64,000 nt of DNA from an uncultured Gemmatimonadales bacterium (GTDB lineage Bacteria; Gemmatimonadota; Gemmatimonadetes; Gemmatimonadales; Gemmatimonadaceae), in the NCBI GenBank assembly GCA_963793305.1, contig CAWBZV010000014.1:160001-224000 (forward strand), read 5' to 3'. A model generated the notes under the pieces. It saw only the letters and a list, made by a program, of their open reading frames with translations, was not told where the DNA came from and ran no database searches. Position numbers and translations under genes: made by a program. Positions 16,134-56,775 of this stretch are shown here, piece after piece; the stretch's first letter is position 1, and each line of letters starts with the position of its first letter.

Positions 16134-16222
16134 GGGCCAAACGTGACCAAGCTGGACCAGGGCTTGCAAGGGGGTAATCGTTTGTGCATGAGGAGCGCGG
16201 ACTTGGGGGCCTAGCGCACGCG

Positions 16223-17713: not shown

Positions 17714-17715
17714 GG

Positions 17716-18754: not shown

Positions 18755-19264
18755 TTACCGCCGGCCTGACATCCCGGCGTCGGCGTCGCGGTTGATGGTC
18801 TGAATAGCCAGCGCGGTGAGTAGCTCGTCGGCCTGCTTCTCCTCGTCGAGCGTCTGCTGCAGCAGGCTCGCGTGTACCGAGTATCCGAGCTGTTCGGCCC
18901 AGGTCCGCGCGCTCCCGTAATTCGCCATCTCGTAGTGCTCGACGCTTTGGGCGCCGGACAGGAGGCCAACATCGAGGATGCCGGCTTCGGGATCTTCTTT
19001 CATGAGCTCGGCTCCTTCGTCGATGATCCCTTGAATGCCTCGACACATCTTGCCTTTCGGACTCTTCCCCAGCTCCTCGAAGATCTGGTCGAGGCGCTCG
19101 ACGTGCGTCTCGGTCTGCAGCCGGTGCGTCTCGAACGCGTCGCGCAGCGCCTCATGCGTGGCGGCGTTCACCATCTTTGGCAGCGCCTTCAGGATCTGGT
19201 GCTCGGCGCTGTACAGATCCTTGAGCTTCTCGACGTACAGGTCCGTCATTGTGGTCGGGGCCAT
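18755..19264 (-). CDS. ferritin-like DUF892 (YciF-like) stress protein
   Basis: LKDLYSAEHQILKALPKM, QSVEHYEMANYG, TLDEEK. GGAGG RBS. Confidence 0.92.
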   Translation of the reverse strand: MAPTTMTDLYVEKLKDLYSAEHQILKALPKMVNAATHEALRDAFETHRLQTETHVERLDQIFEELGKSPKGKMCRGIQGIIDEGAELMKEDPEAGILDVGLLSGAQSVEHYEMANYGSARTWAEQLGYSVHASLLQQTLDEEKQADELLTALAIQTINRDADAGMSGRR

Positions 19265-19310
19265 CGGTCCTCCGAATAGGCGATGCGGGGTTGTGTGTGA
19301 CAGCCTCTAA

Positions 19311-19326
19311 TGCAATCGCCGGTCCG
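19311..19326 (-). promoter_or_regulatory. putative sigma54-type -24/-12 element for the DUF892-DUF2252 operon
   Basis: Minus strand reads CGGACCGGCGATTGCA (GG-N10-GC, TTGCA), about 46 nt upstream of ATG 19264. Confidence 0.35.
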
Positions 19327-19379
19327 TGGCGTCGATCTTGCCAGATCGGCCGCATCGCTGTCTTCCCGGAGGTTGACCC

Positions 19380-36422: not shown

Positions 36423-37205
36423 ATGGAAGAGACCTTACTGAGCCGCTTCATGCAGGCGCTGGTGACGGGTGCGATCCGGGTCGTCGATCTGAGCCAGCCG
36501 CTCGATCCGACCACCCCTGTCATCCAATTGCCGCCGGACTTCGGCCCCTCCTGGCCGTTCCGCTTGGAGGAGATCTCCCACTATGACAGCCGCGGACCGG
36601 CGTGGTACTGGAACAACTTTTCCTGCGGCGAGCACACGGGGACGCATTTCGATGCGCCGGTGCACTGGGTGACCGGCAAGGACTACCCGAAGAACGCCAC
36701 GGACAGCATCCCGGCCGAGAAGCTCGTGGCGCCGGCGTGCGTCATTGACGTCTCACGCGAAGCGGCCGCCGATAGCGACTTCTTGCTGACCCCTGCGCAC
36801 GTCGAGGCATGGGAAAAGAAGCACGGGCGCATCGAGGCGGGATCCTGGGTGCTCATGCGGACCGACTGGTCCAAGCGACGCGCCCCCGCGGCGTTCTTGA
36901 ACATGACCGATACGGGCGCCCACGTTCCGGGGCCTGACCCATCCCTGGTTCCGTTCCTGGCGAAGGAGCGCAATGTGATCGGCTGGGGGTCCGAGGGCGT
37001 CGGCACCGACGCCGGCCAGGCGTTTCGGTTCGACCCTCCGTTCCCGTGCCACAGCATCATGCACGGCAGCAACAAATTCGGACTGGCCAGCCTGACCAAC
37101 CTCGATCAGCTCCCGCCCAAAGGCGCGATCCTGATCACGCCTCCGCTCAAGATCGTCAACGGCTCCGGAAGCCCTTGCCGCGTGCTCGCGTTGGTGACGG
37201 CATGA
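36423..37205 (+). CDS. cyclase-family metallo-amidohydrolase, isatin hydrolase-like
   Basis: HTGTHFDAPVHW metal motif. QLPPDF, ISHYD.RGP and HWVTGKDY match isatin hydrolases as I recall them. GSGSP C-terminus. Confidence 0.85.
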   Translation: MEETLLSRFMQALVTGAIRVVDLSQPLDPTTPVIQLPPDFGPSWPFRLEEISHYDSRGPAWYWNNFSCGEHTGTHFDAPVHWVTGKDYPKNATDSIPAEKLVAPACVIDVSREAAADSDFLLTPAHVEAWEKKHGRIEAGSWVLMRTDWSKRRAPAAFLNMTDTGAHVPGPDPSLVPFLAKERNVIGWGSEGVGTDAGQAFRFDPPFPCHSIMHGSNKFGLASLTNLDQLPPKGAILITPPLKIVNGSGSPCRVLALVTA

Positions 37206-37217
37206 TACATTAGGAGT

Positions 37218-39350
37218 ATGGCGGAACGGAGTTTCGCGAAGGAGGTCCGCAAGCTCAGCCTGGGCGCCGGCGAGGAATTTCGCGGCGAAGGCATCCTCGC
37301 CGTCACCAAAGCTCTCCTGCAGTCCGGCGTCTCGTACGTCGCGGGATATCAAGGGGCGCCGATCTCCCACTTGATGGACGTGCTCACCGACGCCAACGCG
37401 ATCCTCGAGTCGCTCGGCGTCCACTTCGAGCACAGCGCGTCCGAGGCGACCGCCGCCGCGACCCTCGCCGCGTCCGTCAACTATCCGCTCCGTGGCGCCG
37501 TCACGTTCAAGTCGACGGTCGGAACGAATGTCGCGTCCGACGCCCTGGCGAATCTGGCATCGGGCGGTGTCTGCGGCGGCGCACTGATCATCGTCGGCGA
37601 GGACTATGGCGACGGCTCCAGCATCATGCAGGAGCGGTCGCACGCGTTCGCGATGAAATCGCAGATGTGGCTCCTCGATCCGCGGCCCAATCTGCCATTG
37701 ATCGTGCGCGCGGTCGAGCAAGGGTTCGCGCTGTCCGAGGCGAGCCATACGCCCGTGATGCTGGAGCTGCGCATCCGGGCGTGTCACGTGCACGGGCGGT
37801 TTATCGCCAAAGACAACGTTCGGCCCTCCTTCACGCTGAAAGACGCGATGGAGCGGCCCGTGCGCGACACCAGTCGCATCGTGCTCCCGCCGTCGAGTTT
37901 TCTCCACGAGCAAGAGAAGATTCGCACCCGGTGGCCCGCGGCACAGCAGTTCATCGTCGAGCAAGGGCTCAACGAAATCTTCGCCGCGGACGCCCAGGAC
38001 ATTGGGATAATCCTGCAGGGCGGCATGTACAACACCACCGTGCGGTCGCTCGAGCTGCTGGGCCTCGCCGACGCGTTTGGCGACAGCAAGATCCCGCTCT
38101 ATGTCCTCAACGTCACGTATCCGCTCGTCAATGACGAAGTGCGGCAATTCTGCGCCGGGAAACGGGCTGTCCTGATCATCGAAGAAGGCCAGCCCGATTT
38201 CATCGAGCAAGCGTTGAATGCCATGCTGCGCAAATCCGGCAGCACGACGCGGGTGGACGGGAAGGATGTCCTGCCGATGGCGGGCGAGTATACGGCGGCC
38301 GTCGTCATGTCCGGCGTTCGTGCATTCATCGAGCGCCATGCACCAAGCCTGCTGCAACCGCGCGCGAGGCCAGTTGCGGCGAGCGCGAAGCGCGAGCTGC
38401 CCGTTCATTCCCGGCCACCGTCGTTTTGTACGGGTTGTCCCGAACGCCCGATCTTCACCGCCATGAAGCTGGTGGAGCGCGAGCTCGGCCAGCATCACGT
38501 GAGCTGCGACATTGGCTGTCACTTGTTCTCGATCCTGCCGCCGTTCAACATTGGCGCCACGACGATGGGCTATGGCCTCGGCTGGGCCGGGGCGGCGGCG
38601 TTCAACACCAAGGAGACGGACAAGCGCACGGTCTCCTTCATGGGCGACGGCGGTTTCTGGCACAATGGCCTGACGAGCGGCGTCGGCAACGCCGTGTTCA
38701 ATCAGAGCGACAGTGTACTGATCGTCGTCGACAACAGCTATACCGCGGCAACCGGTGGACAGGATATCCTGTCGTCCAAGGCCGACAACCCGATCCGCCG
38801 GACCAAGCTGTCGATTGCCGACGCGGTTCGGGGTGTGGGCGTCAAGTGGGTTCGGACGGTGACGCGAACGTATGACGTCGCCCACATGCGCGACGTCCTC
38901 CGGGATGCGCTCACCACGAAGGAAAAGGGGCCAAAGGTCATCGTGGCCCAGAGCGAGTGCACGCTGAACAAGCAGCGGCGCGTCAAACCGCTGATGCTAC
39001 AGCGCGCGAAGGAGGGGCATCGGGTCGTGCGCGAGAAATTCGGCGTCGATTCTGATACCTGTACGGGCGACCATTCGTGCATCCGCCTCTCCGGGTGTCC
39101 GTCGCTCACCGTGGCCGACAACCCCGATCCATTGCGCCCGGATCCGGTGGCGACGGTGCTCGACAGCTGCGTCGGGTGTGGCCTGTGCGGCGAAGTCGCC
39201 CACGCGGCAAAATTGTGCCCGTCGTTCTATCGAGCCGACGTCGTCTCGAATCCCGGCCGGTGGGAGCGCATGACCGCTCGCGTGCGGGCCATGCTGATCG
39301 GCGTCCTGCAACGGCGACTCGACCGGCGCCTCGCCGGCATCTACGGATGA
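37218..39350 (+). CDS. iorA: indolepyruvate:ferredoxin oxidoreductase family, alpha subunit
   Basis: GYQGAP, SFCTGCPER, DIGC, TPP motif GDGGFWHNG...N, ferredoxin CTGDHSC / CVGCGLC. Confidence 0.92.
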   Translation: MAERSFAKEVRKLSLGAGEEFRGEGILAVTKALLQSGVSYVAGYQGAPISHLMDVLTDANAILESLGVHFEHSASEATAAATLAASVNYPLRGAVTFKSTVGTNVASDALANLASGGVCGGALIIVGEDYGDGSSIMQERSHAFAMKSQMWLLDPRPNLPLIVRAVEQGFALSEASHTPVMLELRIRACHVHGRFIAKDNVRPSFTLKDAMERPVRDTSRIVLPPSSFLHEQEKIRTRWPAAQQFIVEQGLNEIFAADAQDIGIILQGGMYNTTVRSLELLGLADAFGDSKIPLYVLNVTYPLVNDEVRQFCAGKRAVLIIEEGQPDFIEQALNAMLRKSGSTTRVDGKDVLPMAGEYTAAVVMSGVRAFIERHAPSLLQPRARPVAASAKRELPVHSRPPSFCTGCPERPIFTAMKLVERELGQHHVSCDIGCHLFSILPPFNIGATTMGYGLGWAGAAAFNTKETDKRTVSFMGDGGFWHNGLTSGVGNAVFNQSDSVLIVVDNSYTAATGGQDILSSKADNPIRRTKLSIADAVRGVGVKWVRTVTRTYDVAHMRDVLRDALTTKEKGPKVIVAQSECTLNKQRRVKPLMLQRAKEGHRVVREKFGVDSDTCTGDHSCIRLSGCPSLTVADNPDPLRPDPVATVLDSCVGCGLCGEVAHAAKLCPSFYRADVVSNPGRWERMTARVRAMLIGVLQRRLDRRLAGIYG

Positions 39351-40769
39351 GAGCGACGAGCATCGCCATCCTGGCGATGGGCGGCGAGGGCGGTGGTGTC
39401 CTCGCCGACTGGATCGTCGACGTCGCCGAGCACGCGGGGTATCGGGCGCAGACGACATCGGTCCCGGGCGTGGCGCAGCGGACCGGCGCGACGATCTACT
39501 ACGTGGAGATCTTCCCGGCGTCGGACCGCGAGCCGGTGCTGGCGCTCATGCCGGTGCCCGGCGAAGTCGACGTCGTGATCGCGTCTGAGCTCATGGAGGC
39601 TGGGCGCGCGGTGCAGCGTGGATTGGTCACGAGCGACCGGACGACGCTCATCATGTCGACGCACCGGGTCTATTCGATGACCGAGCGCACGGCATCAGCG
39701 GACGGGCGCGTCGACTCCGCCACGCTGCTCGAGGGGGCGAAGCAGGCGGCGCGCCTGTGCGTGAGCCGCGACTTCTCCAGAATCGCCGAGGACAACAAGA
39801 GCGTCATCAGCGCGGCCTTGCTCGGCGCGCTCGCGGCAACACACGCGCTGCCGTTCGAGCGCCGGCAGTTCGAAGAGGCCATCGACCGGGGTGGCGTTGG
39901 CGTGGCATCGAGTCGCGCCGCATTTGCCGCGGGCCTCGCTGCCGCAAAAAATGGCGACCGGCCGACCGCGGCCCCCGCCCCTGCGACGTTCGAGCGTAGG
40001 ACCACGACTCGCCGCTCTAGCTACCCGGGTCCGCCAGTCGTATCCGGCTGTATCCCATGAGATCTTGATCGCCGGGATCCAGCGGCTTGCCGACTACCAG
40101 GACGAACGATATGCGGCCGAGTACCTGGATCGGCTGGAGCCGATTCGCGACGTCGATTCGGGGGATTGTCTCGTACTCAAAGAGACCGCGCGCTATCTGG
40201 CGCTCTGGATGTCGTACGAGGACGCCATCCGCGTCGCCGACCTCAAGATTCGCGGCGGTCGTTTCGCGCGCGTCGTGCGCGAGTCGCGAGCCACCGACGG
40301 GCAGGTCGTGCACATCAACGAGTTCCTGCACCCGCAGATCGGCGAGCTGGCCGACATCGCGCCGGGATGGCTTGGCCGATGGATGCTGAATAGCTCGGCC
40401 GTCCGATGGGTCATCGGAGCACTCACCAAGAAAGGGACCGTTCTCCAGACGACGTCCCTCTACGGGTTCGCGCGCCTCTATTTCCTGGCGTCGCTGCGGC
40501 CAATGCGGCGCGGCTCGCTTCGTTTCGCACGCGAGCATGCGAAGATCGTCGAGTGGCTCAACCAGATTCCCGCGTTGGCGAAAACAAACTACCCGCTCGC
40601 GCTGGAAGTCGCGCAGGTCCCGCGCCTCGTGAAGGGGTACGGCGAGACACACGAACACGGGAGTCGCCGATTCGACGACGTCATGCGCGCCGTGCCCGAG
40701 CTCAGCGCGCGAGACGATGCGGCGCCGCGACTCCGCGCGCTGCGCGAGGCGGCGCTGGCCGAGGTATGA
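39347..40769 (+). CDS. iorB: indolepyruvate oxidoreductase beta-family subunit (extra base near 39989)
   Basis: [21 protein letters not shown], then [32 protein letters not shown] in the next frame. Confidence 0.88.
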
Positions 40770-43041
40770 GAATCGCGTGCCTGGGAGGCGGGCCGGCTGG
40801 ACTCTACTTCTCGATTCTCGCGAAGAAGGCCAATCCATCCTGGGACATCACGGTCGTCGAGCGCAACCGGGCCGACGACACGTTCGGCTGGGGCGTGGTC
40901 TTCTCCGACAAGACGATGGACGGATTCAGGACCGATCGACCCCGAGACGCACGACGCGATCGTCCGAGCGTTCCGCCATTGGGATGACATTGACGTCCAC
41001 TTCAAAGGCCGAGTGGTGACCTCCGGTGGTCACGGGTTTTGCGGTATCGCGCGGATAACCCTGTTGCAGATCCTGCAGCAGACGGGCCCGCGAGCTCGGT
41101 GTCGATCTTCGGTTTCAGACCGAGGTGAGTGACCCCACCGGCTACGCGCGCGACTTCGATCTCGTGGTCGCATTGGATGGCGCCAACTCCGTCACGAGGC
41201 GTACGTTCGAGCCGATCTTCCGGCCGAACATCGATGTCCGGCGGAATCGCTTTATCTGGCTCGGCAGCCGCGCCAAGCTCGACGCCTTCACGTTCGACTT
41301 CCGCGAGACCGAGTGGGGCTGGTTCAACCTCCACGCGTATCGGTTCGCCGAGGACTGGTCGACGTTCATCGTCGAGACCCCGGAGCAGAACTGGCGGGCG
41401 GCCGGCATAGACCGGATGCCGCTGGCCGAGTCGATCCACTTGTGCGAAGCGCTGTTCGCCGACCGGCTGCAGGGTCAGCCGCTCATCTCCAACGCGCACC
41501 ACAAGCAGGGCGCCGACGCCTGGCTCACGTTCCAGCGCATTCTCTGTGAGCGCTGGTACCACGAGAACATCGTGCTGATCGGCGACGCGGCGCACACGGC
41601 GCATTTCAGCATCGGCTCCGGCACCAAGCTGGCGATGGAGGATGCGATCGCCCTCGCGCGCGTGCTCTCGGCCGGCGGCGCGCTGGCGCAGTACCAGAGC
41701 GAGCGCGAGGTCGAGGCGCTCAAGCTGCAGAGCGCCGCCCGCAATCGGATGGAGTGGTTCGAGCAGATCGAGCGCTACGTGCACCTGGAGCCGGAACAGT
41801 TCGCCTACAGCCTGCTCACGGGGAGCCAGCGGATCGGCCACGAGAATCTGAAGGTGCGGGACAAGCAGTACGTGGCCAGCGTGGAGCGATGGTTCGGCGA
41901 GCGGTGCGGCGTGACCGATGTCCGTCCGCCCATGTTCACGCCGTTCACCGTCCGCGGCGTATCCCTCAAGAATCGCGTGCTGGTCTCGCCAATGGCGACG
42001 TACCGCGCGATCGACGGGATGCCGAACGACTTTCATCTCGTGCATTTCGGCGCCCGGGCGATGGGTGGCGCTGCCATGGTCTTCACCGAGATGACCTGCG
42101 TGTCGCCGGAAGGCCGGATCACGCCCGGGTGCTTGGGTCTTTGGACGGATGCGCAGCGCGATGAGTGGACGCGCATCGTCCACTACGTCCACGCCGAGAC
42201 CGACGCGAAGATCGCGCTGCAACTCGGGCACTCGGGGCGCAAAGGGTCTACGCGTCGCGGATGGGAAGGCATTGACCAACCGCTCGACAGTGACAACTGG
42301 CCGCTCGTCTCGGCATCGGCCATCCCGTACATCGAGGGCGTCTCGGACACCCCGCGCGAGGCAACACACGCCGACCTGGCGTGCATCCGCGAGCAGTTTG
42401 TCGCCGCGGCGCGACGGGGCGCGATCGCGGGGTTCGACTGGCTCGAGCTGCACTGTGCCCACGGGTATTTTCTGTCGAGCTTTATCTCCCCACTGACCAA
42501 TCATCGGTCCGATCAGTACGGCGGTTCGCTCGCCAATCGCTGCCGCTATCCGCTGGAAGTGTTCCGGGCCATGCGTGATGTCTGGCCGGACGATCGGCCG
42601 GTGAGCGTCCGCATCTCGGCCCATGACTGGGTGCCGGGCGGACTGACGCCCGATGACGCGATCGAGGTCGCTCGCTTGTTCAAGGACGCCGGCGCCGACG
42701 TGATCGACTGCTCATCGGGGCAGGTCAGCAAGGCCGAGCGGCCGGTGTACGGCCGGATGTTCCAGGTGCCGTTCGCCGACCGGATTCGGAACGAGGTCGG
42801 CATACCGACGATCGCGGTCGGCAATATTTTCGAGGGCGACCACGTGAACACGATCATCGCGGCCGGCCGCGCCGATCTCTGCGCGGTCGCCCGCCCGCAC
42901 CTCGCCGACCCGGCGTGGACGCTGCACGAAGCCGCGAAGCAGGGGTACGCGGATCTCTGGTGGCCCGATCCCTATCTCAACGGAAAACAGCAATTGGAAC
43001 GCAACCTGGCGCGCGCCGCGCTCCTCGCATTGCAGGTATGA
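40766..43041 (+). CDS. abmA: 2-aminobenzoyl-CoA monooxygenase/reductase (salicylyl-CoA 5-hydroxylase family; extra bases near 40933 and 41082)
   Basis: [37 protein letters not shown] (flavin monooxygenase) fused to an OYE domain ([23 protein letters not shown]). Confidence 0.9.
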
Positions 43042-43739
43042 CACTGACTGGGAAGCACGCCGTCGTGACCGGCGGCAATCGCGGCATCGGCGCCGCGATC
43101 GTCCGCGCATTGCAGGAGCACGGCGCGCGAGTCACCGTCGTCCACCGGGCGACCGTGGATGTGGCTGATGGCGACGCGGTGGCCCGAGCCTTTGCCGGAA
43201 TGGGTCGGGTCGACATTCTGGTCAACAACGCTGGCCAGGCGGGCTCGGCGCCCTTCGCCAAAACGGACCACGAGCTGTGGCGCCGGATGATGAGCGTCAA
43301 CCTCGATGGCACCTACTATTGCATGCAGGCCGTGCTGCCGGGCATGCGCGAGGCAGGGTGGGGGCGGATCGTCAACATCGCCAGCACCGCGGGCTTGGTT
43401 GGATACCGGTACGTCTCGGCCTACTGCGCCGCGAAGCACGCCGTGATCGGTCTCACGCGCGCGGTGGCGCTGGAAGTCGCGACCGTAGGAATTACCGTCA
43501 ATGCCGTGTGCCCGGGATACACGGAGACCGATATGGCCAGCGACGCCATCGCGAAGATCGCCGAGCGCACGAAGCGCACGCGCGAGGAGGCGCGCTCCGA
43601 GCTCGAGGCGCACAACCCACAACACCGACTCGTACGGCCCGAGGAGGTCGCGAATGCCGTCGCCTGGCTCTGCCTGCCGGGCAGCGAGGCCATCACGGGG
43701 CAGACGATCGCCGTCGCCGGCGGTGAGGTCATGACATAA
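43038..43739 (+). CDS. SDR-family oxidoreductase (AbmB-like)
   Basis: [21 protein letters not shown]. Confidence 0.9.
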
Positions 43740-44525
43740 TGGACATTGAGTACGTCACCACCCAGGGCGTCGCGACGATTACGCTCAATCGGCCCGAGCG
43801 CAAGAATCCCCTCACGTTCGAGATGTACGCCGAGCTGCGGGATCATTTTCGTGGGCTCAACACAAGCGGAGATGTCAAAGCCGTTGTCGTCACCGGCGCC
43901 GGTGAGAATTTCTGCTCCGGGGGAGACGTCCACGAGATCATCGGACCGCTGACCAAGCGCGATATGCCGGGTCTGTTGGAGTTCACCCGACTCACCGGCG
44001 ACCTGGTCAAAGGCCATGCGCGCGTGCCCACAGCCCATCGTCTCGGCTATCGACGGGATCTGTGTCGGCGCGGGCGCGATCATCGCGCTGGCGTCCGATT
44101 TTCGGTACGGAACGGCGCGGAGCAAGACCGCGTTCCTGTTCACGCGTGTAGGCCTCGCCGGGTGCGACATGGGCGCGTGCGCTATGTTGCCGCGCGTGAT
44201 CGGTCAGGGTCGTGCGGCCGAGCTCTTGTACACTGGGCGCAGCATGGGTGGCGAGGAGGCCGAGCGCTGGGGGTTCTTCAACCGCCTGTGCGAGCCGGGG
44301 AATGTCCTCGGCGAAGCGACAACCTTGGCGGCCGAGCTGGCAGCGGGGCCGACTTTCGCGCACGGCATGACGAAGAAGATGCTTCAGCAAGAATGGAACA
44401 TGGGCGTCGATGAGGCGATCGAGGCCGAGGCGCAGGCGCAGGCGATCTGTATGGCGACGAAGGATTTTGATCGTGCGTATCGCGCGTTCGTCGCGAAAAC
44501 GAAACCCGTGTTCGAGGGCAACTGA
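43739..44525 (+). CDS. enoyl-CoA hydratase family protein (AbmC-like; extra A near 44010)
   Basis: [22 protein letters not shown], then [23 protein letters not shown] in the next frame. Confidence 0.9.
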
Positions 44526-44528
44526 CGG

Positions 44529-45659
44529 ATGGCCGATCGCGCTTTCCTCGATTGGCCATTCTTCGAGGCTCGTCATCGCGCTCTTGCGGGCGAGATAGAC
44601 GCGTGGGCCACTGAGCACGTCGGCGCGGCCGACGCGGATGTCGATGCGCAATGCCGCGCGCTGGTGAAAGCGCTCGGACAGGCCGGGTGGCTCAAGTACG
44701 CGATCGGCGACATCGATACCCGCGCGGTGTGTCTCATTCGCGAAACGCTCGCCCGGCACGAGGGCTTGGCGGATTTCGCCTTCGCCATGCAGGGTCTGGG
44801 ATCGGGCCCGATTTCATTGTTCGGCAATGCCGACCAGAAAGAGCGATATGTCTCCCGCGCGGGCGACGGCTCGAGCATCGCCGCTTTTGCGCTCTCTGAG
44901 CCCGGCACCGGATCCGATGCGGCCGCGCTGACCTGTGCCGCGCGGCGCGATGGGGATAGTTATGTGCTGGACGGCGAGAAGACGTGGATCTCGAATGGCG
45001 GGATAGCCGACTTCTACGTCGTCTTCGCCCGTACCGGCGAAGCGCCCGGAGCCAAGGGTATCACGGCGTTCGTGGTCGAGCCGGACACACCGGGCTTCGA
45101 CTGCTCCGAGCGCATCGAGGTGATCGCGCCGCACCCACTCGCGCGTCTCACGTTCGCGAGCTGCCGCGTGCCGGTCGCCCAGGTGATCGGCGAAGCAGGG
45201 CAGGGCTTCAAGATCGCGATGGCGACGCTCGACGTCTTCCGGACGTCGGTCGCCGCGGCAGCGCTCGGGTTTGCCCGGCGGGCGCTCGACGAAGCCTTGC
45301 GCCACGCGACGACGCGATCGATGTTCGGCCAGATGCTGGCCGACTTTCAGTTGACGCAAGCCAAGATCGCGACGATGGCGACGGGCATCGATACCGCCGC
45401 CCTGCTCACGTACCGCGCCGCGTGGCTTCGCGATCGCGGCCAGCGCGTGACGGTCGAGGCGGCGATGGCGAAGATGGTCGCCACCGAGACCGCGCAACAC
45501 GTGATCGATAGCGCCGTGCAGCTCCTCGGCGCGCTCGGCGTCGTGCAAGGGCATCCCGTTGAACAGCTCTATCGCGAGATTCGACCCTTGCGTATCTATG
45601 AAGGCGCGACCGAGGTGCAACAGTTGATCATTGCGCGCGGGATCATGAAAGGTGCCTGA
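44529..45659 (+). CDS. acyl-CoA dehydrogenase (AbmD-like)
   Basis: [34 protein letters not shown]. Confidence 0.93.
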
Positions 45660-46071
45660 CGTTTATCGCTCGGATATTCTCATCCGGTTCAGGCATTGCG
45701 ATCCCGCCGGAATCGTGTTCTTCCCGCGCTATATGGAGATGTTCAACGATCTCGTCGAGGACTGGTGCCGCGAGGCGCTGGGCTTCGACTTCAACGAGAT
45801 CCACCTCCAGCGGGGCTGGGGCTTACCCACCGTGCATCTCGACGTCGATTTTCGCGCTCCGAGTGTGCTGGGCGACCGGTTGTCGGCGACGCTTCGGGTG
45901 AATCACATCGGATCGAGCTCGATCGGCGTGGATATCACGCTCTGCGGACCAGATGGCGCCGAGCGGGTGCGAGGAAAGTCGGTGCTGGTGTTCACGAGCG
46001 CCGTGTCCAAGCGCGCCGCGCCGATTCCGGACGAGTTACGCGCTCGTATCACCCAATTTTATGCCGGTTGA
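45652..46071 (+). CDS. acyl-CoA thioesterase (4HBT / hot-dog family)
   Basis: [25 protein letters not shown]. Confidence 0.9.
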
Positions 46072-46444
46072 CCTGTTGCAGCCCGAGGGCTGGGAACGGC
46101 CGCGAGGCTACGCCTACGGAGTCGCGGCACGTGGCCGTATCGTGTGCGTGAGCGGCATGATCGGCTCGGGTCCCGACTTCGTGAGCCAGGTGCGCGATGC
46201 ACTGGGCCGTATCGTGAGAGTCCTGGCCGAAGCGCACGCGAAGCCGGAACATATAGTCCGGATGACTTGGTACGTGGTGGACAAGGCCGAGTACGTCGGC
46301 GCGTCCAAGGCGACGGGAGACGTGTACCGCGAGGTCATGGGCCGGCACTACCCCGCCATGACGGCGGTCGAGGTGTCCGGCTTGATCGAGCCGCACGCTC
46401 GCGTGGAGATCGAGGTTACGGCGGTAGTGCCCGACGACGCTTGA
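46061..46444 (+). CDS. RidA/YjgF family protein (abm-cluster type)
   Basis: LQPEGWERPRGY, VRMTWYV, HYPAMT.VEVSGL, VEIEVTA. Confidence 0.9.
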   Translation: MPVDLLQPEGWERPRGYAYGVAARGRIVCVSGMIGSGPDFVSQVRDALGRIVRVLAEAHAKPEHIVRMTWYVVDKAEYVGASKATGDVYREVMGRHYPAMTAVEVSGLIEPHARVEIEVTAVVPDDA

Positions 46445-47798
46445 CGATGAAGTACACGATCGTCAGGGCGCCGAGCCATGGCAGCCCCGCGATCAGTGTG
46501 ATGCGCATCCCCTCGACCCACCACGTGGTCACGAGAATCGCGACCATCGCCACGGCGCCTAGGATCGAGGTGTATGGATAGCCGATCAGGCGCGCGGGCA
46601 GCGGCCGTCCACCCGCTGCCTCCCACCGCGGCCGGAACCGGATGTGCGTGACGAAGATCATGAGCCACACGAACAGGATGCCGAACAGCGAGACGCCGTA
46701 CAGGTAGACGAACGCGCTGTTGGGATAGATCACGGCGACGGCCAGCGCGATCGCCAGCCCCAACGTCGAGGCGAGGAGCGCGGGGACCGGCACGCCCCGT
46801 TTGGACAGGCGGCCGAACGCCGCCGGCGCGTACCCGCCCCGCGAGAGCGAGAACATCATGCGGCTCACGAGATAGAAATTGCAGTTCATGCTCGACGCGG
46901 CCGCGCTGATCACGACGAAGTTGACGATGATAGCCGCCGCCGGCACGTCCATCAGCTCGAAGACCCTCACGAACGGACTCGTCGTGACCGTCGACCCGGG
47001 CTGGATCTGATTCCACGGGACGAGGCCGACCAGTACCGTGATCGCGCCCAAGTAGAACACGAGCAGGCGGCCGACGGTCTGCTTCAGCGCGCGGGGGATG
47101 GCGACGTTGGGGTCCTTGGCCTCGCCCGCCGTGACGGCGGCGACTTCGGTCCCGGTGTAGCTCAGGATCACGATCACCATCGCCATCCAGACGGCGGATA
47201 GCCCGTGAGGGAAGAACCCGCCGTGGCTCGTGTAGTTCGTGAGGCCGATGGGTGTTCCACCGAAACCGAAGATGGCGCCGGCGCCGAGGACGATGAAGAG
47301 GACGATCGCGATCAACTTGATCATCGAGAACCAGTACTCGATCCATCCGAAGCTGCCGACGCTGCGGGCATTGACCGCGATCAACGCGACCGAGAACGCC
47401 AGGACCCACAGCCAGCGCGACGTATGGGGGAACCACCACTGACAGTAGATGGCGATGGCGATCGCCTCGTTGCCGATCGCGATGCACTGGCACGCCCAGT
47501 ACGTATAGCGGACCGTGAACCCGGCCCACGGGTTGACGTATCGCTCGGCGTAGACGCCGAATGATCCGGCGGTCGGCATCGCGACCGCCATCTCGGACAG
47601 CGCGCCCATGAAAATCAGCGTGATCGCGGCCCCGAGGACGTAGCTCAGGATGACGGCGGGGCCGGCGATGTGAACCGAGAGCGAGCTCCCGAGGAACAGC
47701 CCGGTGCCGATCGCGCCGCCGAGCGCGATCATGCTCAGCTGACCGACGCCCAGCTCGCGCGACAGCTCCTCGCCCGTCGGCTCGGCGGGGGAGGTCAC
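46416..47798 (-). CDS. APC-superfamily amino acid permease (AAT/AroP-like)
   Basis: MIALGGAIGTGLFLGS, EYWFSMIK, SYTGTE..AVTAGEAKDP, about 12 TM helices. GTGA overlap with the upstream gene. Confidence 0.92.
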   Translation of the reverse strand: MTSPAEPTGEELSRELGVGQLSMIALGGAIGTGLFLGSSLSVHIAGPAVILSYVLGAAITLIFMGALSEMAVAMPTAGSFGVYAERYVNPWAGFTVRYTYWACQCIAIGNEAIAIAIYCQWWFPHTSRWLWVLAFSVALIAVNARSVGSFGWIEYWFSMIKLIAIVLFIVLGAGAIFGFGGTPIGLTNYTSHGGFFPHGLSAVWMAMVIVILSYTGTEVAAVTAGEAKDPNVAIPRALKQTVGRLLVFYLGAITVLVGLVPWNQIQPGSTVTTSPFVRVFELMDVPAAAIIVNFVVISAAASSMNCNFYLVSRMMFSLSRGGYAPAAFGRLSKRGVPVPALLASTLGLAIALAVAVIYPNSAFVYLYGVSLFGILFVWLMIFVTHIRFRPRWEAAGGRPLPARLIGYPYTSILGAVAMVAILVTTWWVEGMRITLIAGLPWLGALTIVYFIVKRRRALPP

Positions 47799-48950
47799 GC
47801 GCGCGCGAGCAAGTCTCGATTATCCTCCAGTACCGTCAGTGCGGCGTCGACGTCGTCGAGCGTGTTGTAGACGTGGAAGCCGAAGCGAATACCATCTTTG
47901 CGTGACGAGACCGCCACGCCGCGCGCGGTCAGCTTCGCGACTGCGGCCTGGGCGTCACGCGCACGCACCACGACCAAGGGGCCGACGCTCGACACCGGTG
48001 TCTTCGTGGCGACGCCGAGGTCGCGGAGTCCGCTCAGGAACGCGCGGGCCAGCTTCTCGACCTGCGCCGCGACGTTATCCAATCCCACCCGAGCTAAGAG
48101 CTCCAACGCCGGCCGGACGAGATAGACGCTGGGCATGGGCGGCGACCCGCCCTCATAGCGCCGGGCATCGGGCGCGGGGTCCAAGATGCGGGTCTCGAAC
48201 GCGAACGCATTGCGCTGCGCGAGCCAGCTGGTCATGGTCGGGTTCATCGCCTCGATCAGTCCGCGCCGGATATACAGGAAGGCGATGCCCGGGGGCCCAA
48301 GGAGATACTTGAGGGTGCCGGTGACGAAGAAGTCGACGCCGAGCGCTTTGACATTCGATCGGGCGCGTCCCGCAGTCCTGATAGCCATCGAGGAAGAGCA
48401 GCGCGCCGTTGTCGTGGGCAATGCGCGTGATCGCGGGGATGTCCGATCGCGAGCCGTTGACGAACGAGACCGCGGTCAACGGCACGATCTTCGTGCGCTT
48501 GTCGACTGCCTTGGTGTATGCCTCGGTCGGGACCTGATTGTCGGTGCCGTCGAGGAACCGGATCTTCGCTCCCCGTGGCTGCTGCGCCAGCCAGATCTGG
48601 CCCATTGTCGGAAACTCGAACTCGCTCATGACGACGGTATCGCGCCCATCGTGGCCATTGAACGCGAGCGCATTGGCGATGGGGTTGATCGCCGCCGACA
48701 CGCTGGTCGTGATGGCGACCTCGTCGGGCTCGGCGTTGATCAACTTGGCAAACTGGCGGCGGAGCCCCTCGTAGCACTCCATCCACGTGTCCCACGGGGT
48801 GACGGACGTCCGCCAACTCTCTATGTAGGCCCGCATCCCGGCCTCGCTCGCATCGGAGATCGCGCCCTGCGAGCAGTTGTAGAGATAGGTTTTTTCGCTG
48901 AGGATCGGGAAGTGTGATCGCAGTTCGGCGACCTGGTCGTCAGTGAGCAT
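47795..48950 (-). CDS. class V PLP-dependent enzyme (kynureninase-like fold, non-canonical; extra base near 48354)
   Basis: LRSHFPIL, YLYNCSQGA, EFPT, DGYQ..G.RPIDVKALGVDF, PLP Lys in TGTLKYLLGPPG, RRYEGGSP, HVYN. Confidence 0.85.
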
Positions 48951-48993
48951 GCCCAAATCTGGCGTACGGACGACCACGGTTCTAGTATGCACC

Positions 48994-49731
48994 ATGGACC
49001 GGAAACACTTTTATGCGACGATGAACGGGGAGGGAACGCTCGATTACGAGCGGTATCTCAATACGAAAGCGCTCCTCTCGTGCCAAAAGGATTTCGCGGA
49101 CTTTTGCAACGGCGACGAGCTCCAGTTCCAGATCGTGCACCAGGTGGAGGAACTGTGGATGAAGCTCATCGGGTACACGTTGCTGGATATCGACGACTAT
49201 TTGCAGCAGGAGAACACCAACCGCGTCGTCACGCTGTTCGGCCGGACGCACACGGCGCTCCGCCTCATGATTAGCCAGCTGGCGCTCCTCGAGACCATGT
49301 CGCCCCGCGAATATCAGGAGATTCGCCTCCGATTGGGCAACGGCAGCGGGCAGGAGTCGCCGGGCTATCGGACGCTGCTCAAGATGCCCGCGCACATCTG
49401 GCAGTCGTTTCAAACGTATTATCTCGACAATCACGGTCTGACCGTCGAGAAGATCTACAATACCGAGTATGCCCACGGCAATGCCTATGTCGTGGCCGAG
49501 GCGATGGCGGAATTCGACGAGCTATTTCAACGATTCCGGTATTGCCACGTGCAGCTCATCCAGCGCACGATCGGGCTCGGCTCCAAGTCCCTCAAGGGTC
49601 GCCCGGTCGACCGGCTCATCGAAGGGGCACACGCCACGTTCTTCCCCGAGCTGTGGGACATCAGGAGCCAGATGACGGACGGGTGGGGCAGTCAGTACGG
49701 CGTGGTGCGCGACTCCCTTTCCGCACACTAG
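48994..49731 (+). CDS. tryptophan 2,3-dioxygenase-family heme enzyme (atypical, MarE-like loop)
   Basis: YERYL, DELQFQIVHQVEELWMK, EYQEIR, GSGQESPG, proximal His in FRYCH, RTIG, FFPELW. Confidence 0.88.
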   Translation: MDRKHFYATMNGEGTLDYERYLNTKALLSCQKDFADFCNGDELQFQIVHQVEELWMKLIGYTLLDIDDYLQQENTNRVVTLFGRTHTALRLMISQLALLETMSPREYQEIRLRLGNGSGQESPGYRTLLKMPAHIWQSFQTYYLDNHGLTVEKIYNTEYAHGNAYVVAEAMAEFDELFQRFRYCHVQLIQRTIGLGSKSLKGRPVDRLIEGAHATFFPELWDIRSQMTDGWGSQYGVVRDSLSAH

Positions 49732-51875: not shown

Positions 51876-52852
51876 AGATTGAAGAGTCGCGCCGCGTTCA
51901 GCCCCAAAATCTTCGCGCGGTCTGCCTCCGGGATCGGCAGCCCGCGCAGCGATTCCAGCATCGACGGAATGCTTCCGATCTGGTGGGGGTAGTCACTGCC
52001 GGCCAGAATGTGATCGACGCCCGCGAATGCGATCGCCAGCTGCAGCGCGTCGCGGTCGAAGTTCACCGTGTCGTAGTAAAATCGTTTTAGATAGTCGCTC
52101 GGCGGTCGATTGATGTTCACGCGGCACTCGCGAAACGCATGATATCCGCGGTCCAGTCGCTCGGCCAGATAGGGAATCGCCCCGCCGAGATGACCCAACA
52201 CCCAGCGAATCCGCGGAAATCGCTCGGGGACGCCGGCGAACACCAGGTGTGCCGCCGCGAGCGTCGTGTCCATCAAGAATCCGACGAGTGGCATCAACCA
52301 ATAATCGGTCATCGCCTCCACGCCCACTGGATCGGTCGGGTCGATGTGCAGCACCACTCCGAGCGCATCCGCCGCTTCATACAGCGGCCAGAACCTCGCG
52401 TCCGCGAGGGCCACTCCATTGACGTTGCTGAAGAGCATCGCGCCGTGCAACCCCAGCTGGCCGCACGCGCGCTCGAGCTCGCGCACCGACGCTGCGGGAT
52501 CATTCAGCGGCAAGGTCGCATAGGCCGCAAATCGACCCTTCTTGTCGCTCACCACGCGCGCGAACGCATCGTTCACGAGGCTGGCCAGCCGCGCCGCCGT
52601 CGCCGTCGATTCCACGTGCGTGCCCGGCGTCGTCAGCGACATCACTTGCGTGTCCACGCCGAGCTGCTTCAGCACGCCTTCGCGATAATCGATATCGCGA
52701 TGCCCGCGCACCGCGATGTTGTAATCGCCGGGATAGTGGAGCCACGGATTCCCGTCGGCGTCGATGGTCACCTTCACGTTGCTCGGTCCGGTTTGCAACG
52801 CGTTGATGTAGGCCGGCGGATAGTAGTGGTTGTGAACGTCGATGATGCTCAC
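51872..52852 (-). CDS. amidohydrolase_2 family protein (ACMS decarboxylase-like)
   Basis: IDVHNH, GHLGGAIPY, YYDT, GSDYPH. Confidence 0.88.
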   Translation of the reverse strand: MSIIDVHNHYYPPAYINALQTGPSNVKVTIDADGNPWLHYPGDYNIAVRGHRDIDYREGVLKQLGVDTQVMSLTTPGTHVESTATAARLASLVNDAFARVVSDKKGRFAAYATLPLNDPAASVRELERACGQLGLHGAMLFSNVNGVALADARFWPLYEAADALGVVLHIDPTDPVGVEAMTDYWLMPLVGFLMDTTLAAAHLVFAGVPERFPRIRWVLGHLGGAIPYLAERLDRGYHAFRECRVNINRPPSDYLKRFYYDTVNFDRDALQLAIAFAGVDHILAGSDYPHQIGSIPSMLESLRGLPIPEADRAKILGLNAARLFNL

Positions 52853-54166
52853 GTGCGAGTCCTTTTATAGAATGGCCAGCCGGCAACCACGAAGAGCAAA
52901 CCGACCGCGCTCTCGCGCGGCGCGGCCACGATCTGATTGCACACAATCACCGTGCAGGCAGCGACAAACAGCGCTGGAACGACTGGATAGCCCCAGACTT
53001 TATAAGCGGGCGCATAACTTGGACGCCGTCGCAGCCGAAAAATGCCAATCACCATCAGCGCGAAGAATATCCACTCGGTGAACACCACGCGCGTAAACAA
53101 TGCCCGATACGTTCCCGTTGCGACGAGCACGCTCGACCACATGGCCTGTGCCACGATTGCGACGTAGGGGGTGCGAAATCGCGAATGGATCGCGCCGAAC
53201 CACTTGAATGCCAGTCCGTCTTCCGCCATCGCGAAGTACACGCGCGGCCCGCTCAGTATGACGCCGTTCACCGCGCTCGCGCCCGAGAGAATCACCAGCG
53301 CCGAGACAATGCCACCACCCCACGTTCCCGCGAGCGCATTCGCGGCATTGGCCGCTACGCGCTGCGACGTAATCATTTGTTGGAGGGGCAGCACGCGAAG
53401 GTAGGCGGCATTCAAGCCGAGATAGCAGGCCGTCACGACGAGTGTGCCGATGAGCAGCGCGCGGGGGATCGTGCGGTCGGCGGCGCGGGTCTCGCCGGCC
53501 GTGTACGTCACCATGTGCCATTCCGCCGAACGCGAACAGGCCCGCGATCATGGCGAGTAGAAACGCTCGGGGCCCGGGCAAGGGTTCGTGTGTCGCGGTC
53601 ACTGGCGCAATATGAGCGCGGCCAGCGATCACGAACACAAACACGAAGATCAGCGCCAGTGCCAGCACCTTGGCTGACGTGAGCGCCGTCTGCACCGCGC
53701 TGCCTTGTCTCACGCCAAAGTAGTTCACGCCCGACAGCACGAGGATGACTCCGATGGCGACGGCCTGCACTCCTCGGTCGCCGAGCGGTACGAAATAGCC
53801 CACATACCGCGCGACGATCACGGCGATCGCCGCGATAATTCCGGAGTGCATAATCCAGAACATCGCCCAGCCCCACAAGAAGCCCGCCAGCGGCGAGATG
53901 CCTTCGCGCAGGAACACATAGACGCCGCCCGTCTTCGGAAACGCCGACGCAAGCTCCGCGCACGCCATCGCGCCGCACAACGTCAACAGGCCCGCGAACA
54001 GCCACACCGCCATCATGGCGGGGACGTTGGGCACGAGCCGGCTGATTTCCGACGGCTGAACGAAAATCGATGTGCCGAGAATGATGCCCGCGACAATCGC
54101 CGACGTGGCCAACACTCCCATGGTTCGCTTCAGGCCGGCGTCGGGGGCTTTCTCGGATTCTGCCAC
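52849..54166 (-). CDS. APC-superfamily amino acid permease (LAT/SteT-like; extra base near 53521)
   Basis: ILGTSIFVQP, AELASAFPKTGGVYVFL, repaired FAFGGWHMVTYTAGE, PRVYFAMAEDG, YKVWGYP. Confidence 0.88.
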
Positions 54167-54224
54167 GCTCAAAGCTGCTATCGGCCGTCTTGTGCTGCAA
54201 CTTGTATACGAACAGTATACAGCC

Positions 54225-56775
54225 ATGATATCACTCGGCCGTTTGCTGCGCGCCCTGTATCCGCTCATCGCGATCCCCACGCTCCTGGTGGGACAAGCGC
54301 CGACGACCCTCAGCGTCGCTGATCGTCGGCGCATCGATGCGGTGTTCAAGGACTACGACAAGCCGCACGTCCCGGGATGTGCTTTAGGCGTTCTCCGCAA
54401 CGGCCACATTGCCTACGGTCGCGGGTACGGCTGGGCCGATCTCGAGCACAACGTGCCGATCACGACGGCGAGTCTGTTCGATATCGGCTCGACGTCCAAG
54501 CAGTTCGCCGCCGCCAGCATCGCGCTACTGGCCGAGGACCACAAGCTCGCGTTCACCGACGATGTGCGGAAGTACGTCCCGGAGCTGCCCGATTACGGCA
54601 CGACGATCACCATCGACAATCTCATGCGGCACACGAGCGGGTTGCGCGACTACAACGGCCTCCTCGTGCTCGCCGGTCACTCCTTCGAGGAAGTGACGAC
54701 GGATTCGCAGGCGCTCGCGCTCATCGTGCGTCAGCGCCAGCTCAATTTTCCGCCCGGCTCGCGCTACGAATATTCGAACACCGGCTTTTTCCTGCTCTCG
54801 GTCATTGTGCACCGCGTGAGCGGCCAGACGCTGGCCGATTTCGCGCGCGAGCGAATATTTCTACCTCTCGGCATGACGTATACCCTGTATCGGAATCATG
54901 CCTCGATGCTGATTCCCAATGGGGCGATGGGCTATGCGCCGACCGACAGTGGGTTCAAGAACAGCATGTCCAACTGGGAGCAGACCGGCGACGGCGCCGT
55001 GCAACTGTCCATCGACGATGCGCTCCGGTGGGACGAGAACTTCTACCACCCCAAGGTTGGCGGCCAATGGATGGTGGATCAGCTGCAAGCGCGCGGCACG
55101 CTGGCGAATGGCGACTCGATCAATTACGCTCGCGGTCTCTTCGTCCATCCGTATCGGGGATTGCGGCGGATCGAGCATGGCGGTGACTGGATCGGGTATC
55201 ACGCCGCGTACGCACGATTCCCCGACCAGCACACGTCGATCGTGGTCCTCTGCAATTCCGACGGCATCTCGCCGGATGGCTTGAGCGACCAGGTCGCCGA
55301 CATCGTACTGGCAAAGGACTTTCCCGCGAAGGCCCTGGCGGCGACAGCGGCCAGTCACGCCAAGCCGAGCACAATGCCGGCCGTCGCGACGAGCCGGTTG
55401 GTGGGGAGCTACTTCGACAGCACGACCGACGAGGTGTATGGCGTCGTCGACACGGGCGGCGGAACACCGGCTCTCAAATTCGCCGGCCGGACATTTCCGT
55501 TGCGGGCGACAGGTCTGTCGACATTCGCGGTTCCTGGACTACCGGTGTCCGTCACGTTCAGCGTGGGTGATACTGGGCCGGCCCGGTCACTCCGTCTCGA
55601 GGTCGCATCGGAGGATCGTCCGGAAGCCACGCGTTTCACTCCGGCCACGCCAGCTCCGGACTCACTACGTGCCTACGCCGGACGCTACGATAGTCCCGAG
55701 CTCGGCGTCTCGTGGTCGGTTGCCGTCGACAAAGACCATCTCGTGCTGGCCGGTCCGATACCGGTTGTCGAGATTGCCGGCTCACTCGAGCCCGCGATGG
55801 CGGATGGATTCACCGCGCCGGGTGCTTTTATTCGATTCACGGGCGATGGCTTCGAGCTCAGCGCGAGCCGCATGAAGGGCATTCGGTTCGACCGGGGCCC
55901 GGCGCCGTCTGGGTTGTCGCGACAGCCCGCCGACGCTCCCGCCGCGTGGAAGTCGTTGATCGGTGACTACGGAGCGCCGACCGATTCCAACCCGGTGACC
56001 GTCTTCGAGCGCGCTGGCCAGTTGCTCGAGGCCAAGAAGGGCGAGGCGCCGAGTGGCCTGACGCCGGACTCCGCTCGCCAGATCTCGCTCCCTCGCCGCG
56101 ATTATGTGTCAGCGACCGGCAACTTCTACGTCCATCCGGTTCGACCCGTTGACGAGCTGAGACGGGAGGCGCTGCGGGCCAAGCCTCCCGCGGAAGCGGG
56201 ACCGTTTCGGACGCCGGACCTGGTGGACATCACCACGCTCGATCCGGCGATCCATTCTCGACATCCGGTACGCGTCGACGACCAATTTCCTGCGAACGCC
56301 AGTCTACACCGAGGCCCGGGCTTTTCTCCAACGACCCGCGGCCGACGCGTTGATCCGCATCCTCAATAAGCTCAAACCGCTCGGCTACGGCCTCTTGATC
56401 CACGATGCGTATCGCCCCTGGTTCGTGACGAAGATCTTCTGGGATGCCACGCCGCCGGAAGGAAAGATCTTCGTCGCGGATCCCTCGCAGGGCTCGCGCC
56501 ACAACCGGGGATGCGCCGTCGACCTGACGCTCTACGATCTCGCGACGGGCCAGCCTATCGTGATGCCCGGGACCTACGACGAAATGTCGCAGCGATCGTT
56601 CGCGGCGTATCTTGGGGGTACATCGCTCGAACGTTGGCATCGCGATCTGCTGCGCGCGGCCATGGAATCGGAGGGATTCAGCGTGTACGACCCCGAGTGG
56701 TGGCACTTCGATTACAAGGATTGGAAGCAGTATCCCATACTCAATACTCCGTTCGAGAAGCTGGAGCAACGATGA
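54225..56775 (+). CDS. serine hydrolase (beta-lactamase family) fused to M15 D-Ala-D-Ala dipeptidase (extra T near 56255)
   Basis: GSTSKQF, YSN, HGG. After repair: LDIRYA..NF, DAYRP, SRHNRGCAVDL, EWWHF (VanX/DdpX motifs). Confidence 0.82.

Follow-up and report, generated by a model that had tools for sequence, protein, structure and literature searches.

How could a bacterium carry tryptophan to 2-aminobenzoyl-CoA with genes that resemble those of the kynurenine pathway and yet fail its models? The question is raised by twelve genes at positions 36423 to 49731 of a 64,000-nucleotide stretch (the window hereafter) of contig CAWBZV010000014.1 from an uncultured Gemmatimonadales bacterium (assembly GCA_963793305.1; genome G000). 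In this cluster a short heme enzyme of the tryptophan 2,3-dioxygenase (TDO) family, a class V pyridoxal 5′-phosphate (PLP) enzyme and an amino-acid permease adjoin a run of nine genes from a cyclase to a RidA-family protein. An initial annotation had read the cluster as a route from tryptophan to isatin, pointing to four deviations from a kynABU plus abm arrangement, and all twelve of its genes were recovered in place by open reading frame (ORF), domain and profile scans of the window. The scheme that we propose, and to which we give slightly less than an even chance, is aerobic and bypasses kynurenine: predicted enzymes would convert tryptophan to dioxindolylalanine, a retro-aldol reaction would split this into isatin and alanine, and isatin would pass through isatinate to 2-aminobenzoyl-CoA and the Abm pathway. 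The co-occurrence of the genes and the lower half of the annotated scheme have held up, while the PLP enzyme proved not to be motif-free, the lower module is already known, and the SLKGR loop of the heme enzyme does not predict its product. The cluster itself is real and conserved, and it combines known enzyme families in a new way, with two activities that are probably new. Neither tryptophan catabolism via dioxindolylalanine and isatin nor this gene set was found in the literature searched, which covered few subscription papers.

The first step of the proposed route is its weakest. The heme enzyme (48994..49731, plus strand; 245 aa, PF03301), the sole TDO-family gene found in G000, would add both atoms of O2 to the indole 2,3-bond without cleavage and without outside electrons, giving 3-hydroxy-2-oxindolylalanine (dioxindolylalanine), a +32 product and an isomer of N-formylkynurenine (NFK). 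The enzyme keeps the proximal His, the distal His and the carboxylate-binding Arg of canonical TDO: His49 (distal), Arg111 and His185 (proximal), which we take to be the counterparts of the XcTDO residues (the XcTDO numbering being assumed except for H55), recur without exception in the 40 close homologues aligned. The loop S199-L-K-G-R203 is equally invariant, so that the first deviation, SLKGR in place of GTGGS, is present as annotated. Intermediates such as GTKGT and GTQGT among 100 aligned sequences back its register on GTGGS; when phmmer aligns the protein to XcTDO without gaps, the loop falls one residue off. Apart from lacking GTGGS, the protein scores only 116 bits against the KynA model TIGR03036 (cut-off 390.7) and misses about 48 residues of the XcTDO helical insert. 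The clade is strongly conserved, at 71–99% identity across two phyla. A Luz15-type tryptophan hydroxylase was considered and rejected on size, since our protein is a single domain of 245 aa against about 400 aa with an N-terminal extension; Luz15 residues run to 398, with the extension preceding the TDO-like domain (PMC13091554).

The nearest solved fold to the predicted model (pLDDT 77.5) is that of MarE from maremycin biosynthesis (Foldseek E 4e-9, TM 0.73; structural Z 20.3), followed by XcTDO (E 1e-7, TM 0.70; Z 18.6). Like MarE, the heme enzyme has a simplified helix region without the extra helical insert of TDO, an SLGGR-type (SLxGR) loop, the distal His and the carboxylate-binding Arg. 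The two differ in that identity is about 20%, NGSG stands here in place of the MarE DATG loop, and the context is catabolic rather than a β-methyl-tryptophan biosynthetic cluster; the published MarE loops are SLGGR and DATG (PMC11904535). MarE gives five products; without ascorbate a minor one, 1b1, is a 2-oxindole with an extra C3 hydroxyl (PMC12312684). This minor product means that the fold can make the proposed intermediate, which eases what the initial annotation had named as its weak point, the unexplained hydroxylation of C3; the loop does not prove that the heme enzyme makes it. Against the proposed first product, the structural lead of MarE is modest and sequence favours XcTDO (E 6e-23 versus 2e-6; 3e-29 versus 3e-9 in a profile search), MarE without ascorbate forms mainly an NFK-like product, and human TDO with GTGGS changed to SLGGS still gives about 95% NFK (PMC12312684). 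SLKGR alone is no predictor of product, because MarE is mainly NFK-like without reductant and one clade, described below, pairs this TDO with a canonical kynureninase. We infer what the first product is, and for dioxindolylalanine as its working product we put the probability just short of even.

In the second step, the permease (46416..47798, minus strand; APC family, PF00324 E 8e-106) would import tryptophan or already oxidised tryptophan. The PLP enzyme (47795..48950, minus strand; PF00266) would then act as a retro-aldolase at Cβ–Cγ of a tertiary γ-hydroxy amino acid, releasing alanine and isatin, or isatinate directly if the lactam were opened first. The frameshifted PLP enzyme was represented by its intact orthologue P0121 (384 aa, 97–99% identical). 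The best solved sequence match of P0121 is Pseudomonas fluorescens kynureninase 1qz9 (E 4e-27, residues 4–376), and the pocket residues Ser27, Trp53, Trp56, Phe113, Trp242 and Arg355, with the roles that we presume for them in that kynureninase, align with it and are nearly invariant in 112 clade sequences. P0121 nevertheless scores 76.9 bits against the kynureninase model TIGR01814 (cut-off 246.4). The kynureninase motifs DLAH and CTYKY read DGYQ and GTLKY in P0121, true KynU controls having DMAH or DLAH and CTYKY. All 112 clade sequences have Leu in place of the Tyr before the PLP lysine, a residue that is catalytic in kynureninase. The second deviation, a PLP enzyme without kynureninase motifs, was therefore overstated: the DxAH and CxYKY motifs are indeed absent, while the aromatic pocket is kept. 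Its sequence marks the PLP enzyme as a divergent relative of kynureninase, and a 27-row tree, two long branches of which are unreliable, sets its clade off from canonical KynU. A Foldseek search was uninformative, SufS-type desulfurases alone appearing among the matches listed at 20–26% identity, and a cysteine desulfurase of the SufS/CsdA type was rejected as sharing only the fold (TIGR01979, 133.5 versus 475.1 bits).

Kynureninase cleaves dihydrokynurenine by a retro-aldol reaction, and the PLP enzyme would share with kynureninase, Fgm3 and UstD the Cβ–Cγ chemistry on an alanine unit, differing in that it belongs to a clade of its own without a close solved relative. Fgm3 is a retro-aldolase of γ-hydroxy-arginine (10.1101/2023.03.21.533663), and engineered UstD forms tertiary γ-hydroxy amino acids (PMC11976203). 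No oxindole substrate was found in the excerpts of the literature on class V PLP C–C lyases and aldolases. A second PLP enzyme, closest to Fgm3, adjoins the PLP gene in several loci. Of 35 metagenome loci of at least 6 kb, 29 have the permease next to the PLP gene. A 250-aa bicupin with weak matches only (ureidoglycine-aminohydrolase similarity) lies between the two genes in 20 loci (e.g. L177:10524-11276), the window locus not being one of them. That the PLP enzyme feeds isatin or isatinate appears to us rather probable.

The same two proteins could be read as parts of a divergent kynurenine route, which we regard as unlikely. The short TDO would make NFK, the cyclase would double as formamidase, and the PLP enzyme would give anthranilate (or N-formylanthranilate) and alanine; isatin hydrolase, IorAB and Abm would form a separate isatin module, clustered since all the genes serve indole compounds. 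The retained substrate residues His49 and Arg111 of the TDO, the kynureninase pocket and best solved match of the PLP enzyme, and the NFK-type products of MarE and of the loop-swapped TDO are in line with it. An Lrp regulator, as found beside kynA, also adjoins the TDO in Rhizobium and Alloyangia. The uniform change of the catalytic Tyr to Leu, the role of this Tyr being presumed, speaks against it. A variant in which kynurenine is transaminated and then handed to IorAB was rejected, as it needs a thiolase missing from the cluster and, by our own reasoning, the keto acid would cyclise.

The lower half of the proposed route can be read with more assurance. The cyclase (36423..37205, plus strand; PF04199) matches isatin hydrolases in the PDB over its full length (5nmp, E 6e-103; 5nnb, E 8e-100), and scores 23.7 bits against the KynB model TIGR03035 (cut-off 223.05). 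It carries HTGTHFD at 71 and GLAS at 220, the latter placing Ala where KynB has the Glu of its binuclear Zn site. The isatin-hydrolase signature is an HxGxHxD Mn site together with GLAS or GLQC, and all verified KynB have Glu at the GLAS position (PMC6117287). GLAS was found in 39 of 39 cyclase alignments at 74% identity or more (some loci overlap), and the only cyclase found in G000 is of this type. The third deviation, an isatin-hydrolase-type rather than KynB-type cyclase, is confirmed by the 5nmp match, the KynB model and the motif, and it is well supported that the predicted product of this enzyme, assigned by family motif, is isatinate, an aryl 2-oxoacid.

Isatinate would next undergo oxidative decarboxylation with CoA by IorAB to yield 2-aminobenzoyl-CoA, whereby no ligase would be needed. 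The gene iorA (37218..39350, plus strand; TPP_enzyme_C) encodes the alpha subunit of an IorA-type thiamine diphosphate (ThDP)/Fe–S 2-oxoacid oxidoreductase of an IadA-like subfamily; it scores 294 bits with TIGR03336, under the cut-off of 650.9, and is 63–70% identical to proteobacterial iorA genes near isatin hydrolase genes. The beta subunit iorB (39347..40769, plus strand; POR and DUF6537) is split into halves of 329 and 299 bits with NF006179 (cut-off 348), and the ThDP motif and Cys clusters are present in IorAB. No assay of an Ior-type enzyme on isatinate was found in the literature searched. Because the nine genes iadC-K2 restore anthranilate without iadAB in Variovorax (PMC12633357), a result that weighs against our proposal, the action of IorAB on isatinate is something we infer from family chemistry and linkage.

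The last step, for which the family function is established, would be degradation of the ring by AbmA and the β-oxidation genes. The protein of abmA (40766..43041, plus strand), a predicted 2-aminobenzoyl-CoA monooxygenase/reductase, gives 1065.8 bits with NF006101 over a 638-aa part and 92.3 over the N-terminal part (cut-off 1078). It is followed, all on the plus strand, by a short-chain dehydrogenase (SDR; 43038..43739; PF13561/PF00106), an enoyl-CoA hydratase (ECH; 43739..44525) whose halves give 144 and 311 bits with NF006107 (cut-off 330), an acyl-CoA dehydrogenase (ACAD; 44529..45659; PF00441 and related domains), a 4HBT-type thioesterase (45652..46071; PF13279) and a RidA-family protein (46061..46444; PF01042). 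The reference for the abm pathway, AbmA with β-oxidation genes, is the gene order of A. evansii, and NF006101 and NF006107 place the block in that pathway. The fourth deviation, the lack of an anthranilate-CoA ligase, also stands: the cluster has no 2-aminobenzoate-CoA ligase gene, and no aryl-CoA ligase in G000 (92% complete) exceeds the TIGR02262 cut-off (best 185.6 versus 375). With a single cyclase of isatin-hydrolase type and no such ligase, free anthranilate from a kynurenine route would have no evident entry to AbmA, a further point against that alternative. We consider the steps from isatin hydrolase through IorAB to Abm, taken jointly, to be likely, and the passage from isatin by way of isatinate to a ThDP enzyme has good support.

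This lower half resembles known auxin and indole catabolism. In iad loci indole-3-acetic acid (IAA) is degraded via isatin, and isatinic acid goes to anthranilate, with iorA/iorB (iadA/iadB) as markers (PMC9613470, PMC8383072); iadA/iadB are induced by IAA in Bradyrhizobium japonicum (PMC3788728). As in the iad systems of Variovorax paradoxus CL14 and B. japonicum, an indole would be degraded here through isatin and isatinic acid, the iorA/iorB marker and isatin hydrolase are present, and homologues of the window cyclase (57–58%) fill the iadI position in iad-like operons of Ruegeria and Roseibium. Since the isatin hydrolase–IorAB module is already a known marker of these auxin-degrading loci, it is not new. 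The Rieske proteins IadCDE, the ligase IadF, the thiolase IadG and IadH/J, by contrast, are not among the twelve genes, and the upper part consists instead of the TDO homologue, the PLP enzyme and the amino-acid permease, which implies that the substrate is an amino acid whose side chain would leave as alanine. With kynABU plus abm the cluster shares the TDO and cyclase folds, a kynureninase-related class V PLP enzyme, AbmA, SDR, ECH, ACAD, thioesterase and RidA, and the overall balance of tryptophan in and alanine plus activated anthranilate out. It differs in failing all three kyn models, in SLKGR, in GLAS for the KynB Glu and Leu for the kynureninase Tyr, and in having IorAB where Arthrobacter Rue61a has a ligase, which there adjoins the monooxygenase (PMC3534580).

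Do the upper and lower blocks belong together? The TDO query found more than 2,000 proteins, many of them annotated as tryptophan 2,3-dioxygenase. Of at least 565 loci the best 80 were examined, and 50 of their 79 genomes were searched whole, among which related genomes make the counts overstate independence. The PLP gene lies within 10 kb of the TDO gene in seven of the 80 loci, in five gene orders, and iorAB is present in all seven; in L057 the same strand carries TDO, PLP, isatin hydrolase, iorA and iorB in a row. The separate occurrence of the two blocks in other genomes, which the initial annotation had named as fatal to its scheme, was not what we found: TDO, PLP, isatin hydrolase and iorAB occur jointly in both Gemmatimonadota and Acidobacteriota, arranged in at least five gene orders. 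Nine of the 50 genomes have a close PLP orthologue (at least 62%), and all nine have a close isatin hydrolase and the PLP gene within about 15 kb of iorAB, the TDO gene lying 3 Mb off in G023. A kynureninase over the cut-off was found in none of these nine, and an aryl-CoA ligase over the cut-off in none of ten (the nine and G533) as against 28 of the other 40, a contrast confounded by six of the ten being Gemmatimonadota. The PLP gene directly precedes isatin hydrolase and iorA in L057, L082, L195 and L197, an order left unexplained by a divergent kynurenine route.

An even sample of 360 Terriglobia genomes, with the centre genome dropped, contained 30 with the TDO, 19 with the PLP clade and 35 with isatin hydrolase; five PLP candidates were scored per genome, kin are not independent, and G474, G499 and G702 are flagged unpublished. 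TDO and PLP showed the strongest association (12 genomes observed, 1.6 expected), followed by PLP with isatin hydrolase (10 versus 1.9), and the latter two genes lie within 25 kb of each other in 10 of the 11 genomes having both, the centre genome counted. Gemmatimonadota are too sparse for such statistics, the SLKGR clade occurring in 3 of 351 genomes, G000 included. The PLP enzyme is thus tied to both halves, to the TDO and to the isatin genes.

These counts also bear on a salvage role, which we hold to be quite improbable: permease, PLP enzyme, isatin hydrolase, IorAB and Abm would recycle abiotic dioxindolylalanine from oxidised peptides, the heme enzyme being an optional feeder with a mixed output (NFK and oxindoles) only partly used. 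Such a role would suit the 35 metagenome loci, where the PLP gene is accompanied by the permease in 29 and by the TDO in seven. It would also suit the placing of PLP and permease genes among dipeptidases, aminopeptidases and peptide transporters, the five genomes with PLP next to isatin hydrolase in which no SLKGR TDO was found (G545, G681, G575, G488, G660), and the mixture of five MarE products. It is at odds with the TDO–PLP association in the even sample, with the fusions and tight operons that join the two, and with a degree of conservation in the TDO clade unlike that of a sloppy side enzyme.

Several observations weigh against the dioxindolylalanine scheme as a whole. No PLP gene lies within 10 kb in 73 of the 80 TDO loci, a close isatin hydrolase is missing from 28 of the 50 TDO genomes, and TDO and isatin hydrolase were not enriched together in the even sample (5 versus 2.9, p 0.19). 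The 35 metagenome loci, all with the close PLP clade, included seven with the TDO, six with isatin hydrolase or ior and 10 with any pathway gene, and 17 loci of a more distant PLP tier had no pathway genes. Furthermore, 57 of the 80 TDO loci are near a flavin reductase (27), F420 genes (18) or a luciferase-like monooxygenase (LLM; 30), for which the scheme does not account.

This last setting would agree with a MarE-type monooxygenase. Outside electrons would then give oxindolylalanine (+16), and either air or an unlinked enzyme would hydroxylate C3, or the PLP enzyme would eliminate oxindole (with pyruvate and ammonia), to be oxidised later to isatin. MarE with ascorbate does convert L-tryptophan to 2-oxindoles (PMC12312684), and in P0192 a 2Fe–2S/FAD reductase is fused to a distant short TDO. 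Yet neither this cluster nor any of the other close-PLP loci shown contains a reductase, LLM or other hydroxylase, and one step more is required than for direct dioxygenation; we judge this alternative very unlikely. Among L040-L080 (Acidobacteria) the flavin reductase and the F420 genes (cofD, cofE, cofG, npdG) lie just downstream of the TDO. Eight loci (L014, L025, L027, L033, L036, L038, L069, L070; about 7600–20300) show an unexplained catabolic cluster, in which the SLKGR TDO ends a run with FAH and homocitrate-synthase-like genes facing an F420-type LLM, two ApbA, two M24, one M20 and a molybdo-hydroxylase.

The pairing that tells most against dioxindolylalanine is found in 12 related Acidiferrales genomes (one of them, G027, flagged unpublished), which have the SLKGR TDO and a close isatin hydrolase and no close PLP orthologue. 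A canonical kynureninase, which would take the place of the PLP enzyme, occurs in exactly these 12 of the 50 genomes, together with an aryl-CoA ligase in 10 of 11 tested and a second cyclase carrying the KynB-type Glu (NLEN) in 5 of 5 tested, so that this clade could have a full kynurenine route; a canonical TDO was found in none of the 50 genomes. Abm or iorAB genes are near the TDO in those examined; of the ten checked, all show linkage within about 20 kb except G015, where isatin hydrolase alone was seen. No kynurenine genes were found among the annotated neighbours of the kynureninase in eight fetched loci, where it stands alone among unrelated genes. Either the TDO would make NFK in these bacteria, or the kynureninase may cleave dioxindolylalanine, which resembles its tetrahedral intermediate; and as the Acidiferrales are one clade, the pattern may reflect a single event. 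A search for PF06052, as a sign of NAD synthesis via 3-hydroxyanthranilate, matched 0 of 49 genomes, and since control genomes likewise gave no match this is no evidence.

Loci in which one component is displaced by another fit the dioxindolylalanine/isatin scheme. In a second isatin hydrolase subclade (57–60% identity, mostly GLAG), a two-subunit ThDP decarboxylase directly precedes isatin hydrolase in six of six fetched Terriglobia loci (L241:10833-12734, L242, L243, L258, L259, L260). This ComD/ComE-like protein (TIGR03846, 132 bits, under the cut-off) is a candidate isatinate decarboxylase. In three of the six the isatin hydrolase faces the PLP clade, a permease and a second PLP enzyme with Fgm3 as best solved match. 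Two different ThDP enzymes beside the cyclase imply that its product is a 2-oxoacid, and a kynurenine route leaves them without explanation. In the Variovorax pathway, a compound of formula C7H7NO, matching 2-aminobenzaldehyde, has been detected (PMC12633357). The isatin half of our proposal, which draws on motifs and these displacement patterns, is well supported.

Displacements of the upper half were also observed. On a plasmid of Novosphingobium KACC 22771 (L269:6843-26591) a region of about 20 kb combines a transporter, a sister PLP enzyme (38%), a PrnB/bacterial-IDO-family heme enzyme with Lrp, and isatin hydrolase, iorA and iorB, the heme enzyme and Lrp lying between the sister PLP gene and the isatin hydrolase–ior genes; this suggests that certain PrnB-like proteins act as oxygenases in catabolism and supply isatin. 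On a Caballeronia SBC1 plasmid (L315:4407-24387) iorAB, abmA and a GLQC cyclase follow on from genes for a class V PLP enzyme (27%) and an amino-acid ABC transporter; cupin, FAH, nitrilase-family and racemase genes are in the region too, and neither a ligase nor a TDO is among the 23 genes listed. Alloyangia pacifica YSBP01 has an SLKGR TDO (61%) beside a similar PLP enzyme on one plasmid, and isatin hydrolase, iorAB and abmA adjoining an indole monooxygenase on another. In P0183 and P0211 a distant short TDO is fused to a class V PLP domain 32–35% identical to P0121. We tentatively suggest, with confidence somewhat below even, that the SLKGR clade is a dedicated non-ring-opening tryptophan 2,3-dioxygenase and the kynureninase-like clade its retro-aldolase, together opening an isatin route into a CoA pathway without ATP, and that elsewhere a PrnB/IDO-like enzyme or a canonical kynureninase fills these slots.

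Other fusions of short TDOs, P0192, P0189 and P0202 among the set, carry the reductase mentioned above (P0192), an NAD-binding epimerase or ATP-grasp. A plasmid of Micromonospora zamorensis (L160:4352-12609) combines genes for nitric oxide synthase, a globin-domain protein, a short TDO (GTKGT), a class V PLP enzyme, an MFS protein and a 423-aa protein with TDO-like motifs seen by eye, possibly a small biosynthetic cluster.

If the dioxindolylalanine scheme is true, soil bacteria would have an undescribed route of tryptophan consumption, with a natural enzyme that diverts the TDO reaction from ring cleavage to a 3-hydroxy-2-oxindole, a point of relevance to product control in the TDO/IDO/MarE family. 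It would name a direct biological source of isatin, propose a substrate for the IorAB (IadA/B) pair of auxin-degrading loci and offer a PLP aldolase for chiral 3-substituted 3-hydroxyoxindoles. It would also warn that the more than 2,000 proteins matched by the query may not all make formylkynurenine. Its four soluble enzymes, with substrates that can be bought or readily prepared, make the scheme directly testable.

The layout of the locus is compact. The nine plus-strand genes from cyclase to RidA are tightly packed, with gaps of −11 to +12 bp; the permease and PLP genes converge on this run, and the PLP and TDO genes are divergent. The start codons of the latter two are 43 bp apart (48951–48993), a spacer nearly identical in L001 and hardly long enough for a pair of promoters or a regulator site. 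The nearest relatives of the window are Gemmatimonadaceae metagenome-assembled genomes with a 99% identical TDO. Five single extra bases break iorB (about 39986–39989), abmA (about 40928 and 41081), the ECH gene (about 44008) and the PLP gene (about 48353). None of them occurs in three relatives (91–92% DNA identity) or in the contigs that run X1 yielded for a strain about 99% alike, which makes assembly errors their most likely origin, and a pseudogene reading of the cluster was rejected; the iorB frame is uninterrupted in L001 and L002, and abmA is an open frame of 757 aa in L001. Beyond the cluster, a permease-like gene at 52849–54349 is split over two overlapping minus-strand ORFs, probably by another assembly frameshift.

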